Positions 5,033 through 59,056 of a DNA stretch of 64,000 nt are shown here, one piece after another. Each line of letters opens with the position of its first letter. Position 1 is the stretch's first letter. The stretch spans positions 897,872 through 961,871 of the forward strand of contig CBDBQC010000003.1 in assembly GCA_965209205.1 (NCBI GenBank), given 5' to 3'. Both the position numbers and the translations under genes were made by a program. The stretch comes from Dehalococcoidia bacterium. Its GTDB lineage: Bacteria > Chloroflexota > Dehalococcoidia > Bin125. Below the pieces are notes generated by a model that was not told where the DNA came from, did no database searches, and saw nothing but the letters and a program-made list of their open reading frames with translations.

Positions 5033-5056
5033 CAGATCCCTTGCGGGCCGCGCGCC

Positions 5057-5252
5057 GGAACCTCACCCCCTGGCCCCCTCTCCATTGCAGAGCAATGGAG
5101 AGGGGGAATCGGAAGGGGAGCGGGTTGATCGCACGCCCTTCCGGTCCCCCCTCTCCACCTCCTGGTGGAGAGGGGGTTAGGGGGTGAGGTTCCCCCTCCG
5201 GTCCCCCCTCATCCATCGGTTCAGATGGAGAGGGGGTTAGGGGGTGAGGTTC
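5057..5252. repeat. Inverted-repeat-bounded palindromic repeat element, copy B (~196 bp; one full unit plus a partial tandem unit)
   Basis: Same termini (GGAACCTCACCCCCT ... GGGGGTGAGGTTCC) with three CCCCTC(T/A)TCCA...TGGAGAGGGGG hairpins. Sits between the SBP stop and the dppB start, inside the operon. Confidence 0.75.
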
Positions 5253-5258
5253 CGCGCG

Positions 5259-7667
5259 TTAGATGTGCCGCTGCACGGCGTAGGTGGTGCCCCCCCAGAG
5301 GGTGCCGGTGCGCCCGCCCTTCGGCCAGTTGACGTCGCTGCGGGTCAGCACCGCGTCCGGCGCCTCGACGATGAAGACGTAGTACGCCTGACGCGCGTGC
5401 TCCAGGAACATCTCCGTGATCAGCTCCGCGCGCCGATCGGGATCGAGCTCGGTGGTCTGCGCGAGGTACAGCTCCTGCAGGGCCGGATCCTGGACCCCCG
5501 AGCCGTTGAGCTTCATGAAGTAGGATTCGGGCCCGGCGCAGCAATCCCACATCGATCCGACGTCGCGGACGGGGTTGGCCCAGAACCAGTAGAGGCCCGG
5601 CGGGAGGCCGGGGCCGCCCGTCACGTAGGCGTCGGTCAAGTACTCGCCCAGGAGGGTCGACTCTTCGTGCGCGCGGATGCCGACCGCGGTCAGGTCCTGC
5701 ACCACAGCCAGTACCAGGTCCGCCTCGTACGCGCCGCCCCAGTCGGACGCCCAGTACAGGGGGATGTCGAAGCCGTCCGCATAGCCCGCCTCCGCCAGCA
5801 GCTGCCTCGCCCGCTCGGGGTCGTAGTCGTACTGGACGTCCTGCTTCTGCTCCGGGCTGGGGTAGCCAGGGACGCCGCTGAACGCGAAGAGTGGATACGT
5901 GCCCTGGCCGAGCAGGAGGTTGTCGATCATGGCTTGGCGGTTGATCGCGTGGTTCGCGGCCTGGCGCACGCGGAGGTCCAAGAACGGGTTCGGGCTGCCG
6001 TCTGCCATCGTCTCTGGGAACAGGTTGGGATGGAGGTTCTGGATGGTCCACGGTCCGGCGGGCTGGAACTGCACGCTGAAGTCGGGGTCGTCCACGTACG
6101 GCCTCACGTTATCGGGGCCCAGTTCCGGCACCGTGTCGATCTCACCGGCCTCCAGGCCGGCCAGCCGCGACTGGATCTCGGGCCGCACCACGATCTTCAG
6201 GTGCTTGTTGTGGGCGTAGCGCTGCACCACGGTGGGGTGGTCGACCGGGTTGAAGTGGTCCTCGAAGCGCTCGAAGACGAAGTCCGTGTCGTCTTCGTGG
6301 CTGACGAAACGGTAGGGACCGGTGCCCATCAGCGCCTGGTCCACCGCGGCGTCGCCGCGCCGCTCCGTGTCCGCTTGCGACATGACGGCGATCTCGCCGA
6401 CCCCGGTCAGGTTGATGATGAAGAAGCCCGCATCGGGCGCCGGCAACTCGAACGACCAGGTGCGGTCGTCCACGGCCTCGTTCCGGACCCAGTCCCGGGC
6501 GCTCCGGCCGGGATTCGCGGGGGCCCAGCCGCCGGTGTGATCGCTCGTCGCGCCGCCCTGGTGGTATTCGGCGAGACCGCCCGCGCGGTCGTAGCTGAAC
6601 ACCATGTCGTGGGCGGTGAGGATCGAGCCGTCGTGGAACGGCGCCGGCCGGACTGACGCCCGAATCGACGTGGCGTCAATCCACTCCGGCGCGGCGAGCG
6701 ATGGGACCGACTGGCCATCGAGGGGATCCCAATCCAGGGGCGAGCTGAGGACGGCCCCGTGCGCGTAGTGCTGGCCGAAGCTGCCGGCGCGGTGCTGATC
6801 CAGGCCCCCCTGGTCGGCCGGGACCACCCCGACGATCGAGGCGTCCAGATCGACTTGGTCGAGCGGCCAGGGGACGGTGAACTCGGCGGTCTCGCCGACG
6901 ACCCCGGCGACGGCCGCCGCAGCCGCGCTGGCGGCCTCCCCGGCCGCCTCGGCGGCCTCTTGGGCGGCGGCGACGGCGGCGGCGGCGGTCTCGGCCGCGG
7001 CTTCGGCGGTCTCCTGAGCCGTGGCGGCGGCCGCCCCGGCGGCGGCGGACGCCTCCCCGGCAGCAGCCGCGGCAGCGGCAGCCGCCTCAGCGGCCTCGTC
7101 GATGGCGGCCTGGGCGGCCTCCGCGGTGGCCGTCCCGGCCTCGACCGCGGCGGCCGCGTCGCGGGCGGCCTGGGCGGCGGCCTCGGCGGCCTGAGCGGCG
7201 GCGTCCGCGACGGCCGCGGCAGCGGCGTCACCGGCCGCGGATGCGGCGTCGGCGGCCTGGGCGGCAGCCGCAGCGGCGGCTTCCGCGGCGGCGGCCGCGT
7301 TGGCGGCGTCCTCCGATTCGGCCGCCTCGGCGGCCAGGGCGGCGGCCGCATCGGCGGCGTCGGCGGCCTGGGAAGCCGCGGCGGAGGCCTCGGACGCGGC
7401 GGCAGCCGCCTCAGCGGCGGCGTCCGCGGCGGCCTCGGTTTCGGCGGCGCGCGCCTCGCCGGCGGCGATGGCCGCCGCTGCGGCGTCCTCCGCGGCCGAG
7501 GCGGCCCGTTCGGCGGCCGCGGCCCCGGCGTCGGGCTCGTCGTCGTCGCCACAGCCGACGAGCGCGAGGCCGGCCGCTCCAACGCCAGCCTTCGCGCTGG
7601 CTCCCAACATGGTGCGACGCGAGATCTTTCGCTGTCGCAGGGTGGTCCAATACTTCGGCGTGCTCAT
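5259..7667 (-). CDS. ABC transporter substrate-binding lipoprotein (family 5, peptide/nickel/opine-type) with a ~230-aa Ala-rich acidic linker
   Basis: MSTPKYWTTLRQRKISRRTMLGASAKAGVGAAGLALVGCGDDDE has a Tat-like RR motif and a lipobox (LVGC). A long A/E/D/Q/S/T low-complexity tract follows, then an SBP_5 domain. Lies upstream of dppB and dppC. The 26-aa N-terminal extension in the ORF track is leader sequence. Confidence 0.8.
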   Translation of the reverse strand: MSTPKYWTTLRQRKISRRTMLGASAKAGVGAAGLALVGCGDDDEPDAGAAAAERAASAAEDAAAAAIAAGEARAAETEAAADAAAEAAAAASEASAAASQAADAADAAAALAAEAAESEDAANAAAAAEAAAAAAAQAADAASAAGDAAAAAVADAAAQAAEAAAQAARDAAAAVEAGTATAEAAQAAIDEAAEAAAAAAAAAGEASAAAGAAAATAQETAEAAAETAAAAVAAAQEAAEAAGEAASAAAAAVAGVVGETAEFTVPWPLDQVDLDASIVGVVPADQGGLDQHRAGSFGQHYAHGAVLSSPLDWDPLDGQSVPSLAAPEWIDATSIRASVRPAPFHDGSILTAHDMVFSYDRAGGLAEYHQGGATSDHTGGWAPANPGRSARDWVRNEAVDDRTWSFELPAPDAGFFIINLTGVGEIAVMSQADTERRGDAAVDQALMGTGPYRFVSHEDDTDFVFERFEDHFNPVDHPTVVQRYAHNKHLKIVVRPEIQSRLAGLEAGEIDTVPELGPDNVRPYVDDPDFSVQFQPAGPWTIQNLHPNLFPETMADGSPNPFLDLRVRQAANHAINRQAMIDNLLLGQGTYPLFAFSGVPGYPSPEQKQDVQYDYDPERARQLLAEAGYADGFDIPLYWASDWGGAYEADLVLAVVQDLTAVGIRAHEESTLLGEYLTDAYVTGGPGLPPGLYWFWANPVRDVGSMWDCCAGPESYFMKLNGSGVQDPALQELYLAQTTELDPDRRAELITEMFLEHARQAYYVFIVEAPDAVLTRSDVNWPKGGRTGTLWGGTTYAVQRHI

Positions 7668-7800
7668 GATCGGTTCCTTTCCGGGAACTACCGTTGGCCC
7701 CCCCGGGGGACCGTCGGGCTGGTGAGCATGCGCAGTATGGCACATTTCACTAAGACCCCCCCCCCCCCCCCACCTCCCCCCTTATGTTTCATAGAAAGAT
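7668..7800 (-). promoter_or_regulatory. Conserved 5' leader/promoter module of SBP paralogue 1
   Basis: Near-identical to the leader of the paralogue at ~32175-32290. Contains hairpin GTTCCCGGAAAGGAAC overlapping the RBS, a palindrome GG(C/T)CCCCCCGGGGGACC, and a 16-nt C homopolymer at ~7756-7771. Confidence 0.5.
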
Positions 7801-7937
7801 TTGATGGATACCGGTGGATCTATAGGAGTTGACCGGGGAAACCGCGTCCCGCCACCCTGCGATCTCGCCTATAATCCTCTATACTGCGATGGATACCCGC
7901 GAACCGCGGTTGTGCCGGTGCGCCGCCGGCGCGGCGG

Positions 7938-32345: not shown

Positions 32346-32426
32346 TTCGGATTCGGGCGCCGTGGGACGCCCCCTGTGTCACTCGTGGGGTTCCGGCGTG
32401 CGATCGCGCGCCGGAATCGCTCCCCC

Positions 32427-32460
32427 GAACCTCCTCTCCATCGTGCAGATGGAGAGGAGG
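32427..32460. repeat. degenerate solo hairpin copy of the palindromic repeat family
   Basis: GAACCTCCTCTCCATCGTGCAGATGGAGAGGAGG. Confidence 0.55.
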
Positions 32461-32717
32461 CCAAAAGGTGGAGGTCGGCCGGCGCGCCACGATCCGGTGA
32501 TCTACCCGACCGCCAGCCTGACTTGGGCGATGGCCGGCGTAGCCCACGCATGGGGGCGGTTGGCACCGTTCGCGGCGCGCGGAGATCCGCTCCGACCGCC
32601 CCCACCATCCCTGCTCGCGTGGGCCGTGCTCGCCGACGCCGGATAGGGAGATCACCCCACGTGGCATCCCCGCGCGCCACCCTCTACACTGGCCAATGGA
32701 CAGAAAGGAACGGGGCC

Positions 32718-54302: not shown

Positions 54303-54773
54303 ATGCGCTGGCTGGCCGCCGTGACGAGCGTCGAGATCGACCGGCCGATTGACGACGTGTGGGCATTCGTGACGGACATCGGGAACATGCCGCACTGGGT
54401 CGACGGGGTGTCGGAGCCGGCGCTGACGCCGGGGGCGGATGCTGCGGCGTCACCCCTGGAGGCCGGGACGCCGTTCACGAGCCGCTACACCTACGCCGGC
54501 CGCACCCACACGATGCACTACGTCGTGACCGACCTGGAGCCGCCCACCCACTACGCGCTCAAGTCCACCGAGGGCCCCTACCCCGTCGAACTGCGGCTGC
54601 GGCTGTCGTCGGGCGCCGACGGCGCGACGACGCTGGAGAAGACGACCCGCGCCGGCTCCGACGGCGTCGTCACGAGCGCGATGTTCCTGCTGTTCGGCCC
54701 GCTGCTGCGTCGCATGATGCGCCGGCAGATGTCGAAGGAGCTCGCCCGCTGCAAGGCGGCCGTCGAGGGCTGA
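54303..54773 (+). CDS. SRPBCC (START/polyketide-cyclase-like) family protein
   Basis: ...IDRPIDDVWAFVTDIGNMPHWV...; RBS AAGGAGTGG. Confidence 0.65.
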   Translation: MRWLAAVTSVEIDRPIDDVWAFVTDIGNMPHWVDGVSEPALTPGADAAASPLEAGTPFTSRYTYAGRTHTMHYVVTDLEPPTHYALKSTEGPYPVELRLRLSSGADGATTLEKTTRAGSDGVVTSAMFLLFGPLLRRMMRRQMSKELARCKAAVEG

Positions 54774-54782
54774 GCGCGCGCC

Positions 54783-54833
54783 GACCTCACCCCCTGGCCC
54801 CCTCTCCATCTGAAGCGACGGAGAGAGGGAACG
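54783..54833. repeat. degenerate copy of the palindromic repeat family at an island boundary
   Basis: GACCTCACCCCCTGGCCCCCTCTCCATCTGAAGCGACGGAGAGAGGGAACG (terminus plus a decayed hairpin). Confidence 0.55.
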
Positions 54834-55144
54834 TGACCGCGAACGGGCGGGGCGTGCGGCGAGGCTCGCAGCGAAGTGGGCAGCGTGGGGGGTACCATCG
54901 CGGGGTGAGGTCCACGCGTGCGACCTCAAACCACCGATACTGGACCAGTCATGGCTGTCGACGCACGAATGGACGAATACGTACGGCGGGCGCAGCCGTT
55001 CATCGAGTCCGGAGACTTCGACGAACAGGAGGCGAAGTACAAGCTGGATGGCGTCGTCGCGTAGGGTCCCTGGTCGCACCACTGGGCGGTCGCGCAGTGA
55101 TCGCGCGAAGGTACGGGGAGAGATCAGAAGCCTCTAGACTCTCA

Positions 55145-55762
55145 AGGATGGCCGAAGAACAGAACTGGTGGTGCACTCTCGACGCACGATGGGCGGAGAC
55201 TCGTCGACTGCCGTCCGTCGCGTATACCTGTGGCTACTGTGGCCGTGCCGTCGCGTCAGAACGGGGGTGGTACACCGAAGCTATGCTCGCGACCATCCGC
55301 GTGTGCCCCCAATGCAATGCCCCAACGTTCTTCAGCGCTCAGGGCGCGCAGCACCCGGGCCCGCTCCTTGGTGGGAAAGTCGCGAGCCTCGCCGACGATG
55401 TCCGGGGCATCTACGACGAGGCGCGGAATGCTCTGACCGTCGGGGCAGCCACCGGAACGGTGATGCTCTGCCGCAAGATACTGATGCACGTCGCGGTCGA
55501 TATGGGGGCCAACGAGGGTAAGAGGTTCCAGGAATACGTCGAGTGGCTCGCGGACGAAGGGTGGATTCCGAAGGGTGGTCAGCGCTGGGTCGACTTCATC
55601 CGGCGGCGCGGGAACGAGGCCAACCACAAGCTCCCCGACATAACAAGAGAAGATGCCGAGGGGATTCTGAAGTTCACCGAACTGTTGCTTCGGAATGTCT
55701 ACGAGCTACACGCCTTGCTGCCTCCGCCCCCCGATGCTGGGCCTTCAGAGGATGGCGGATGA
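55145..55762 (+). CDS. zinc-ribbon plus DUF4145 domain protein
   Basis: N-terminal CGYCGR...CPQCN (four Cys in two CxxC pairs). C-terminal ILMHVAVDMG...FQEYVEWLADEGWIPKG...FIRRRGNEANHKLPDITREDAEGILKFTELLLRNVYEL matches the DUF4145 core. Convergent with the R-M pair. Start coordinate +/-3. Confidence 0.6.
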   Translation, partial: RMAEEQNWWCTLDARWAETRRLPSVAYTCGYCGRAVASERGWYTEAMLATIRVCPQCNAPTFFSAQGAQHPGPLLGGKVASLADDVRGIYDEARNALTVGAATGTVMLCRKILMHVAVDMGANEGKRFQEYVEWLADEGWIPKGGQRWVDFIRRRGNEANHKLPDITREDAEGILKFTELLLRNVYELHALLPPPPDAGPSEDGG

Positions 55763-55811
55763 CCGCCCGCTGCCAGCGGATAGGCGCACGACGGCATTGT
55801 GAACGGGGACT

Positions 55812-56363
55812 CTAGTCCGGCTCGATGAAGATGACCTTGACCGGGAACGTCGGAAACTGCCGCTGCAGGCCGATGATGTCGGTCACGAGCATCTCGCCCC
55901 GTCCTACACCCGACGACATTTGGGCTGCGAGGCGATGTGACGGGACGATTTCGACGCCAACATCGGCCTCATCCTGACGGTAGAAGTACTCCAGTTTCGC
56001 CATGTCGTAGAACATCGCGAAATACTTGCCAAGCTGCACCTCGACCAAGACTCGATCACGCGCGAAGTCGATCTGCTTGCGACCGGTCCGCAACCGGGAC
56101 GTGTCCCAGTCGGGAACGTTCGGCTTCACGGATCGCTTCAACTCCTGGAAGCCGCGCGCGTTGAACTCGGAGCGGAGCGCAGAGTTGATGGCCGTCGGAT
56201 CGAAGAGCATGCGACCTTTCTTCGTCTTCTCCTTGCTCTTCTTGGTCCGGAAGTCGCTGCCGATCGCCGCGATAACTTCGTGGATCGCCGCGTCGATGTC
56301 CGGGAACCGCGACCGGAGGATCTCGCTGCCGCCGAGATGCGAGTACTCGTAGACGGCCTTCAT
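55812..56363 (-). CDS. Type II restriction endonuclease, BglII/BstYI family
   Basis: 183 aa. MLFDPTAINSALRSEF... and DFARDRVLVEVQLGKY parallel BglII LIFDPVGTNQYIKDEL... and DFGKRDTLVEVQFSNY. ATG overlaps the methyltransferase stop (ATGA). GC ~58%. Confidence 0.7.
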   Translation of the reverse strand: MKAVYEYSHLGGSEILRSRFPDIDAAIHEVIAAIGSDFRTKKSKEKTKKGRMLFDPTAINSALRSEFNARGFQELKRSVKPNVPDWDTSRLRTGRKQIDFARDRVLVEVQLGKYFAMFYDMAKLEYFYRQDEADVGVEIVPSHRLAAQMSSGVGRGEMLVTDIIGLQRQFPTFPVKVIFIEPD

Positions 56364-57301
56364 GGCCCGCCTGGAGGACTGGCAAGCTCCAGCCGGAGCA
56401 GGCTGTCAACCTGGGGGGGCTGGTACACAGCTCTCGTCATGGGCCTGGTCCGCAGCCTACCTTCGTAAGCCTCCTTGGCTCGTTTCTTCCCGATCTCGTA
56501 GTACTCGGCCTCGATTTCTGCACCGACGGCGCGGCGCTGATGCCGCAGGGCGCCGGCGGCGGTCGAGGCGACGCCCATGAACGGGTCAACGACGAGATCA
56601 CCGATTCTTGTCATGCTCAAAACGAGACGCTCAACCAGCTCGATAGGGAACTGGCAGGGGTGAGGCGTCTTCTCAACGTGGTTGTTCTTCACGTTCGGGA
56701 ACACCCAGACATCGCCGGGGTTCTTTCCCAGCGGGTTCCCCGACAGTTGCCCCGCCCGGGGACCCTTGAAGTGGCGCTTATTCGGGTACTTCTGCGGCGT
56801 CCGAATGGGGTCGACGTCGAACAGGTAGTCGTCCCCCTTGGTGAACCAATTGATGGTCTCGTAGCGGCCGGAGAGTCGCTTGGTGCAGTGCAGCCCGTGC
56901 TCGAAGTGCCAGACGATCCGGTTCCGCATCTTGAGTCCGAGTTCCCGGAACACGGGGAACAGCAGCGCATCGAGCGGCACGATCTCGCCACGGTCGACGT
57001 GGTTCCCGACCTGCCAGCAGATCGACCCGTCGTCGGCTAGAACACGGACGGATTCCGTGATGACGGCGCGCTGGAACTCGACATAGTCGTCCAGCGAAGA
57101 GCGGTCCTCGTAGGGCTTGCCGATGTTGTACGGCGGGGAGGTCATCACGAGGCGCGCAGCCCCGTCGGGCAGCTGAGCGAGGAGTTCCAGGCAGTCGCCG
57201 TTGAAGAACGAGAAGTCGGCCTCAGGGTCGAAGTCGTCGGCGAACCGATAGGCTGCCCTCACGGGCACTTCCGCAGGTGGCTGCATCCTGAACTCCGGCA
57301 C
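56360..57301 (-). CDS. beta-class DNA methyltransferase, probable N4-cytosine (m4C) specificity, cognate to the BglII-like endonuclease
   Basis: Motif IV TSPPY precedes motif I VVDPFMGVASTAAGA (beta-class order). SPPY is typical of N4C methyltransferases (BglII and BamHI methylases are m4C). Start is GTG, or the internal ATG at ~57286. Confidence 0.75.
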   Translation of the reverse strand: MPEFRMQPPAEVPVRAAYRFADDFDPEADFSFFNGDCLELLAQLPDGAARLVMTSPPYNIGKPYEDRSSLDDYVEFQRAVITESVRVLADDGSICWQVGNHVDRGEIVPLDALLFPVFRELGLKMRNRIVWHFEHGLHCTKRLSGRYETINWFTKGDDYLFDVDPIRTPQKYPNKRHFKGPRAGQLSGNPLGKNPGDVWVFPNVKNNHVEKTPHPCQFPIELVERLVLSMTRIGDLVVDPFMGVASTAAGALRHQRRAVGAEIEAEYYEIGKKRAKEAYEGRLRTRPMTRAVYQPPQVDSLLRLELASPPGGP

Positions 57302-57547
57302 TCCGGCCCTCGGTGGTCAAGCTAGCGACCGGCTGATCCGTAGTCAAAGAACTGGACCCCCGCCTGCGAGCGCGCGCCGCCTGACACGGTTGCGGCCCGC
57401 CGCAGGTCCGCACGCCGACCGCTGACGGAAACCCCGCTCCTGCCATGGCGCACTGCTCGCCGCTTCCCCCTGTGAGAGCGCGCCGCGAATTCCCCGGGCC
57501 GGCGGCCGGGCATCGGCGCTGCGCCGCAACGCCGGCGATCCGATCGG

Positions 57548-59056
<1,509 letters not shown>

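Follow-up and report, generated by a model that had tools for sequence, protein, structure and literature searches.

A BstYI-like restriction-modification pair and a putative RAZR-like HEPN protein in an acquired cassette beside rpoD of a Dehalococcoidia bacterium

Gene Content of the Locus

The gap between rpoD, the gene of a group-1 sigma factor, and an SRPBCC gene has been analyzed in a 64,000-nucleotide stretch of DNA from a Dehalococcoidia bacterium (the window, to which all positions refer unless another locus is named). Three intact genes occupy this gap and form a predicted anti-phage cassette (Table 1). One gene, on the plus strand, encodes a protein with an N-terminal zinc ribbon and a C-terminal DUF4145 domain. 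The other two are read convergently with it on the minus strand and encode the methylase and the endonuclease of a restriction-modification (R-M) system. An earlier note on this DNA had described the region as a horizontally acquired, low-GC (guanine plus cytosine) defense islet of three genes, and this description is upheld both by the base composition and by an exact break in synteny with related genomes.

Table 1. Positions of the cassette genes and of the features around them in the window.
Feature	Position	Strand	Remarks
SRPBCC gene	stop at 54773		left flank of the slot
Single REP-like palindromic repeat unit	54784-54832		native intergenic DNA, outside the insert
Island proper	54870-57546		2677 bp; missing at this site from 6/6 relatives of ~91% DNA identity
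37-codon orphan open reading frame	54951-55064	plus	dispensable for the cassette
Core three-gene cassette common to other genomes	55064-57350		~2.3 kb; the L091/L092 version spans 54888-57388
RAZR-like (PD-T7-4 family) gene	55148-55762	plus	204 aa
Cys4 zinc ribbon of the RAZR-like protein	~55148-55345	plus	residues 1-66; C28, C31, C53, C56
DUF4145/HEPN domain of the RAZR-like protein		plus	residues 91-178; predicted catalytic R152 (55601-55603) and H160 (55625-55627)
Spacer between the convergent stop codons	55763-55811		49 bp
BglII/BstYI-family Type IIP endonuclease gene	55812-56363	minus	183 aa; predicted catalytic D99, E108, Q110
Beta-class N4/N6 amino-methyltransferase gene	56360-57286	minus	308 aa from ATG 57286; 313 aa from GTG 57301
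Promoter-like TTGACT-N17-TAGCTT	57319-57347	minus	upstream of the methylase-endonuclease operon; read from sequence
GC-rich filler between the cassette end and the rpoD stop	57389-57546		158 bp; 74% GC over 57302-57547
rpoD, group-1 sigma factor gene	57548-59056	minus	right flank of the slot

The GC content of the island is 63.8%, compared with 71.2% for the window, and that of the single genes is 63.1% (zinc-ribbon-DUF4145 protein), 60.3% (endonuclease), and 63.5% (methylase). The dip is real, although these values are slightly higher than the 58-62% first given for the genes. GC at third codon positions (GC3) is 0.74-0.84 in the three island genes and 0.95-0.97 in rpoD and the SRPBCC gene.

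An Acquired Insert in a Variable Slot

Six related genomes (loci L003-L008) have been compared with the window, all found through proteins that share the 90% cluster of rpoD. Their DNA is ~91% identical to the window on either side of the slot. In five of them, alignment to the window shows that synteny breaks exactly at 54776 and 57547, and the slot is occupied by a gene for an 821-aa LonC-like protease (AAA_32 plus Lon_C) with a native GC content of 72.3%. The sixth, L005, has an empty slot, with 128 bp between the two stop codons, of which ~93 bp align to window positions 54777-54869. Since the homology to this empty site reaches 54869, the start of the island is placed at 54870. The slot is therefore found in three states among genomes of ~91% identity, carrying the LonC-like gene (five genomes), nothing (L005), or the defense cassette (the window). 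By the exact synteny break against the six relatives, the insert is non-native, well beyond chance. The LonC-like gene is not itself called a defense gene, because it has no PADLOC match and its GC content is native.

The Restriction-Modification Pair

By homology, the endonuclease belongs to the BglII/BstYI family and is closest to BstYI. It matches the Pfam family Endonuc-BglII (PF09195) with an E-value of 4.6e-13 and 49.7 bits, against a curated cut-off of 26, and the PADLOC model REase_II with an E-value of 5.4e-32. Among structures in the PDB, BstYI (1sdo) is matched with an E-value of 6.4e-30 and BglII (1d2i) with an E-value of 0.009. In HMMER alignments, the segment IDFARDRVLVEVQ sets D99, E108, and Q110 on the D-X8-E-X-Q motif of BstYI and BglII (D84, E93, and Q95 in BglII). 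Also, K113 (in GKY) and S151 (in MSSG) align with K133 and S172 of BstYI and are kept in all relatives compared. K133 and S172 are reportedly the two base-contacting residues of BstYI, as Townson et al. 2005 are said to have described. As with BstYI (RGATCY) and BglII (AGATCT), a cognate beta-class methylase is encoded directly upstream of the endonuclease.

Unlike BstYI, which has 203 aa, the endonuclease has 183 aa and is a short form, with 17 residues in place of the 36 of BstYI between positions 79 and 114 (~19 fewer). The subfamily of such short forms, of ~182 aa, is large, and its members carry the public labels 'BstYI' or 'BglII/BstYI family'. From the homology to BstYI, the target is probably a hexamer with a GATC core, such as RGATCY. 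Counts of sites in the window were considered as a further clue to specificity and give no usable signal of restriction-site avoidance. Under a fourth-order Markov model, RGATCY occurs 64 times (71 expected) and AGATCT 7 times (15.6 expected), so that AGATCT is about two-fold rarer than expected while RGATCY overall is not rarer. The island itself holds 17 GATC sites and a single RGATCY (at 56318).

The methylase matches the Pfam family N6_N4_Mtase (PF01555) with an E-value of 1.4e-49 and the PADLOC model MTase_II with an E-value of 2e-84, and its best PDB match is the adenine methylase M.RsrI (E 1e-32). Its motif IV, TSPPYNIGK, with SPPY at residues 55-58, precedes the motif-I-like DPFMGVAST found around residue 240, and the methylase therefore has the beta-class order. 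These results agree with what the earlier note had read from the same two genes, namely a BglII/BstYI-family endonuclease and a beta-class methylase with SPPY in motif IV. SPPY in this position is linked to an N4-methylcytosine product, and, as read from this motif by itself, the product of the present enzyme is probably N4-methylcytosine. SPPY is found in all methylase homologues beside BglII/BstYI endonucleases, including plasmid copies. On small plasmids of Sphingobium and Acinetobacter, members of this methylase family (52-67% identity, always with SPPY) lie directly upstream of BglII/BstYI-family endonucleases, the full-length plasmid-borne relatives being ~33% identical to the endonuclease described here, and these pairs stand alone. 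Because the same methylase family pairs with such endonucleases on plasmids, the two genes are regarded as an ordinary mobile Type II system.

The methylase start is best supported at ATG 57286, which is preceded by GGAG-N6 and agrees with homologues called at 308 aa. The TGA stop codon of the methylase overlaps the ATG of the endonuclease (ATGA, 56360-56363), which implies translational coupling from methylase to endonuclease. Upstream of the operon, the promoter-like stretch is kept in L002, L090, L091, and L096, four loci at which the cassette recurs (see below), and the homology stops just upstream of it. This stretch is predicted to be the promoter of the operon, and the conserved part of the cassette ends with it; it failed a strict scan for the E. 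coli-type consensus. In the spacer between the convergent stop codons, a scan found no terminator, and the folding z-scores (0.79 and -0.23) indicate no stable structure.

The RAZR-like Protein

The zinc-ribbon protein matches Pfam DUF4145 with an E-value of 9.7e-13, in line with the domain first assigned to it, and its sole PADLOC match is PD-T7-4 (PDLC04109), with an E-value of 3.5e-6. The same PADLOC model is matched by 31 of its 46 homologues (best E-value 2.5e-10). A functional screen yielded PD-T7-4 (PMC9519451), which now goes by the name RAZR and whose mechanism has been solved (PMC13017515, Nature 2026). The DUF4145 architecture, which had been taken for biochemically uncharacterized, thus has a characterized counterpart. 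In RAZR, a Cys4 zinc-finger domain binds ring-shaped phage proteins, either the portal or Gp77, and the DUF4145 domain is a divergent HEPN RNase with catalytic residues R146 and H154 (PMC13017515). RAZR builds a 24-mer around the phage ring and cleaves single-stranded RNA non-specifically, leading to abortive infection; it acts as a single gene and is non-toxic until triggered (PMC13017515).

The protein encoded here resembles RAZR of E. coli and Klebsiella in joining a Cys4 ribbon at the N-terminus to a DUF4145/HEPN domain at the C-terminus within a single polypeptide of ~200 aa (PMC13017515, PMC9519451). In the family alignment, C28, C31, C53, C56, N156, N159, and H160 are invariant across the 46 homologues. 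R152 stands eight residues ahead of H160, which gives R152-x7-H160, the spacing of the RAZR dyad. The PADLOC alignment, in which residues 44-161 cover model positions 40-155, sets R152 and H160 on positions 146 and 154. An AlphaFold (AF2) model built on the homologue alignment has a pLDDT (predicted local distance difference test score) of 90.3 and shows four beta strands over residues 19-62. Among 350,542 PDB chains, the top fold match is the RAZR:Gp77 complex (9y9c), with a probability of 0.99 over 191 columns, 18% identity, and a TM-score of 0.37-0.40, followed by HepT-type HEPN toxins. On these sequence and model comparisons, the protein is a distant relative of the PD-T7-4/RAZR kind, and we refer to it below as the predicted RNase.

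The zinc ribbon is the most variable part of the protein. Six related copies were compared: in five, it is 55-62% identical, versus 73-85% for the rest of the protein, while the nearest copy (L091) lacks this contrast (0.89 for the ribbon and 0.85 for the rest). Likewise, the zinc ribbon is the most variable part of RAZR, where it sets phage specificity (PMC13017515).

The public gene call begins at Met46 (159 aa) and drops the first CxxC of the ribbon. The 204-aa form is considered right because every related copy checked has kept the upstream ATG together with the N-terminal sequence. Public calls of the close relatives P0001, P0005, P0007, P0008, and P0010-P0012 also start at an internal Met (146-164 aa); in the window, the N-terminal part affected by such calls is 55148-55285. 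A -10-like hexamer, TAGACT, lies at 55135-55140 and ends 7 nt before the ATG, a placement that suggests a leaderless mRNA.

Distribution of the Cassette and Linkage of Its Genes

When close relatives of the predicted RNase (68-84% identity) are traced to their contigs, the same convergent trio is found at L002, L090, L091/L092, and L096/L097, with 84-89% nucleotide identity to the window over ~2.3 kb. The genes adjoining the trio are wholly different between these loci, so that it occurs in at least five genomic contexts, and the common block stops just past the promoter-like regions on either side. Because this conserved block recurs in different neighborhoods, the trio is concluded to move as a unit. 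The ratios of nonsynonymous to synonymous substitution rates (dN/dS) of the three genes are 0.13-0.39, which indicates purifying selection.

The partner of the predicted RNase can also be exchanged. L089 is the chromosomal site of L002 in a sister strain, where the RNase gene has been kept together with the final 100 nt of the endonuclease gene (a 41-codon stump), and the remainder of the R-M pair has been replaced by a gene for a 295-aa REase_II-like protein (NmeDI_C in precomputed Pfam hits). No methylase gene is called beside this gene in L089. The swapped region extends over 6581-7893 in L089 and 8625-10217 in L002. At both loci, the cassette is flanked by the two ends of a broken Type ISP/IIG gene, one N-terminal and one C-terminal fragment, as though it had taken the place of the middle part. 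The fragments are found at 7165-7830 and 9988-10671 in L002 and at 5219-5884 and 8039-8386 in L089, and a Type_ISP_C fragment is present on the methylase side in L096. At L001, an RNase relative of 68% identity lies beside an intact Type ISP/IIG enzyme. Positions 4604-16000 of L001 form a larger defense island with the Type ISP/IIG enzyme, an OLD-like TOPRIM fragment, ParE/HTH (helix-turn-helix) genes, and a CBASS (cyclic-oligonucleotide-based anti-phage signaling system) operon composed of SMODS, HORMA, AAA, and SAVED.

Conversely, endonuclease relatives of 74-76% identity at two chromosomal loci (L099 and L100) have the methylase and no DUF4145 neighbor. The wider RNase family has at least 322 species representatives and, like that of RAZR, is scattered over many phyla as a stand-alone gene. 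Among 80 sampled loci of this wider family, which cover many phyla at 39-57% identity, a BstYI-like endonuclease neighbor is found in none (0/80), and no neighbor family recurs; only heterogeneous, scattered defense genes are seen.

Boundaries of the Insert and Other Features

The palindromic repeat at the left of the island had been taken for a decayed copy of a repeat of the window that marks the island's edge. It is a true copy of the family, 77-90% identical to other copies in the window, which are located at ~1992-2145, 5049-5258, and 32417-32485. The pattern of the repeat is matched six times in the window, versus 0.01 expected. The family resembles repetitive extragenic palindromes (REP) and bacterial interspersed mosaic elements (BIME), with units AACCTCACCCCCTRRCCCCCTCTCCAT...ATGGAGAGGGGG that often occur as inverted pairs. 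The repeat is rejected as the end of the cassette because the same unit, with a perfect 13-bp stem, is present at the identical place in the empty site of L005, and the island begins further on. At L002 and L089, copies of the family are also found close to the cassette, and at L091 a REP-like arm directly adjoins the end of the cassette.

The island was scanned for tRNA genes, recombinases, Rfam families, flanking repeats, and consensus terminators or promoters, with no convincing flanking repeat and no match of any other kind. An exact 12-nt direct repeat, GAGCGCGCGCCG, at 54772 and 57368 was considered as an insertion signature or target-site duplication and was rejected because such a repeat is expected by chance in DNA so rich in GC and its left copy is native sequence. 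Neither the relatives nor the other cassette copies nor the REP family contain a counterpart of the filler on the rpoD side. Within the filler, a 21-nt motif located at 57360-57380 is repeated imperfectly at 57466-57486.

The 37-codon open reading frame (ORF) is present as described in the earlier note, which had considered it the remnant of a larger gene; no parent of that kind has been found in protein searches. It is kept only in L091/L092, with 81% identity by blastn over the 37 codons and 75% by tblastn with a 48-residue extended query, and the cassettes of L002, L090, and L096 are without it. A word-index search of 5.8 billion proteins returned only the ORF itself, and an exhaustive HMMER search of 1.84 billion representative proteins returned two short ORFs only (37 and 48 aa). 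P0139 is a third variant of the ORF, 48 aa long and 70% identical over residues 1-33, after which its tail is different. Derivation from the C-terminus of a coenzyme A-transferase was rejected: the ending '...GVVA' plus stop that the ORF shares with the gene flanking L090 is a GC-rich match of 15 nt only, and similar 15-mers recur nearby. The ORF and the flanks were also considered as fragments of a Type ISP gene, for which blastx found nothing.

Proposed Roles of the Two Modules

We propose, with a probability of about 0.72, that 54870-57546 is a horizontally acquired cassette in a variable slot and holds two mechanistically independent anti-phage modules. In the first module, the methylase would be made first and the endonuclease would follow by translational coupling through the ATGA overlap. 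The BstYI-like endonuclease would cut incoming DNA that is unmodified, its most likely target being a hexamer with a GATC core (RGATCY, for example), while the beta-class SPPY methylase would protect the host, probably through N4-methylcytosine. In the second module, read convergently, the variable zinc ribbon would sense an assembly of phage-made protein, which by analogy with RAZR could be a ring of the portal type. Oligomerization would then switch on the HEPN RNase (R152/H160), and non-specific cleavage of single-stranded RNA would stop translation and abort the infection. Restriction would thus act as the first line and abortive infection as the fallback, and neither module would require the other.

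The cassette is read as two autonomous modules and not as an obligate three-part machine because its parts are separable: the R-M pair has been swapped, methylase-endonuclease pairs stand alone, and the wider relatives of the predicted RNase are free of this partner. The modules are linked in that they travel together as a ~2.3-kb promoter-to-promoter unit in one lineage. Both are of known kinds and do not form a new class of system. The earlier note had offered three roles for the DUF4145 protein (regulator, sensor, or abortive-infection effector), and the PD-T7-4/RAZR match and the HEPN dyad favor the last.

Several points weigh against this proposal. The relationship to RAZR is remote, and neither phmmer nor the family profile retrieved the RAZR chain from the PDB sequences at E-values up to 10. 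The protein is called RAZR-like and not RAZR for these reasons, namely the 18% identity, the TM-score of ~0.4, and the miss by the sequence profile. It differs from RAZR also in its high-GC host, the nearest named cassette copy being in a Chloroflexota metagenome-assembled genome, and in being tied to a Type II R-M pair within a conserved cassette; a trigger, an oligomeric state, and an RNase activity like those of RAZR are predicted for this clade by analogy. The endonuclease departs from the full-length BstYI architecture in its shortened 79-114 segment, and specificity within the BglII/BstYI family is hard to predict from sequence (PMC2731914). Two characterized RGATCY systems of this family use N6-methyladenine (m6A) (PMC10287943, PMC10734518). 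Finally, every closest RNase relative examined adjoins an R-M gene or a remnant of one, whether BstYI-like, Type II REase-like, or Type ISP/IIG, and this adjacency could reflect more than hitch-hiking.

The last point leads to a different reading, in which the three genes form one integrated system and the zinc-ribbon HEPN RNase guards the R-M pair, firing when a phage disables or evades restriction. The model for such an arrangement is PrrC-EcoprrI, in which PrrC is an anticodon nuclease guarded, and held latent, by a Type Ic R-M enzyme. As in that system, a gene for a predicted abortive-infection RNase is linked to R-M as a second line of defense, and the linkage, across a 49-bp spacer, has been maintained in all the contexts described above with every gene under purifying selection. 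The PrrC gene, on the other hand, lies within the hsd operon and is transcribed with it, and PrrC itself contains an ATPase domain and depends physically on the restriction enzyme, none of which is seen here: the RNase gene is a separate convergent unit that is not co-transcribed with the R-M pair, and Pfam detects no ATPase domain.

A second parallel involves AbiD, which is said to be a HEPN-family protein. In the restriction-modification-controller (RMC) island of Acinetobacter baumannii A118, a separate cluster, the genes for a methylase, a C-type regulator, and a BglII/BstYI endonuclease are followed by a predicted AbiD gene (PMC10287943). As at the locus described here, a BglII/BstYI-family R-M system lies in a strain-variable hot spot with an abortive-infection gene linked to it, there directly after it. 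The A118 island differs in its Dam-like adenine methylase (m6A:RGATCY), its HTH controller, and an abortive-infection gene that is not of the zinc-ribbon DUF4145 type, and functional coupling is not evidenced there either (PMC10287943). DUF4145 domains that are joined to R-M components in one protein, or that share an operon with them, have been on record since 2013 (PMC3710099).

Against a single integrated system, the R-M partner is interchangeable, with a different REase-like gene at L089 and a Type ISP enzyme at L001, and both the endonuclease relatives of 74-76% identity and the plasmid copies are without a DUF4145 gene. Also, this R-M system is absent from the neighborhoods of all 80 wider RNase relatives, and RAZR functions as a single gene (PMC13017515). 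The view that the protein is partnered with the R-M pair therefore holds as a physical linkage within a narrow clade and fails in the wider family. We consider an integrated three-gene system unlikely.

In a related reading, it is the RNase of this lineage that now depends on the adjoining R-M system, which it would guard by sensing cleavage products or the interference of a phage with restriction, in place of phage ring proteins or in addition to them. This reading is kept because every close relative examined adjoins some R-M gene, and it is quite unlikely because the partner can be swapped and the wider family is autonomous. If this were true, the 2.3-kb cassette would be a genuine system of three components and a Type II equivalent of PrrC-EcoprrI.

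The RNase could also be an addiction or stabilization toxin that helps a small mobile cassette to persist after transfer, with no role in host defense. HEPN domains are common among the toxins of toxin-antitoxin systems, HepT toxins are the fold matches next after RAZR, and the cassette is found at many sites although it has no recombinase of its own. However, no cognate antitoxin (MNT) gene adjoins the RNase gene, and the 37-codon ORF upstream is absent from most cassette copies. Moreover, the family member that has been validated acts against phages and is not toxic before it is triggered (PMC13017515), and a fast-evolving sensor domain fits an arms race with phages. This explanation is highly doubtful.

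The earlier note had also offered the zinc-ribbon DUF4145 protein as a substitute for a controller (C) protein. Such a regulator could bind nucleic acid through its ribbon, as zinc ribbons can, and would supply a useful control over the timing of endonuclease and methylase in an operon without a C protein. This reading is very improbable, since no HTH or other DNA-binding family is detected in the protein, its HEPN catalytic residues are invariant, its gene runs convergently to the endonuclease gene instead of preceding it, R-M pairs of this family function on plasmids and chromosomes with no such protein beside them, and translational coupling from methylase to endonuclease already orders expression.

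Implications

With the two independent modules as the preferred reading, what appeared to be an unknown partner of an R-M system resolves into two recognizable defense modules. A compact, promoter-bounded cassette would carry restriction and abortive infection together among unrelated chromosomal sites. The correction of the gene start is of value for annotation, since the public Met46 start loses half of the zinc ribbon. The comparisons also point to a distant RAZR clade in high-GC environmental bacteria, whose divergent sensor domain would be available for comparing how triggers are recognized across the family.

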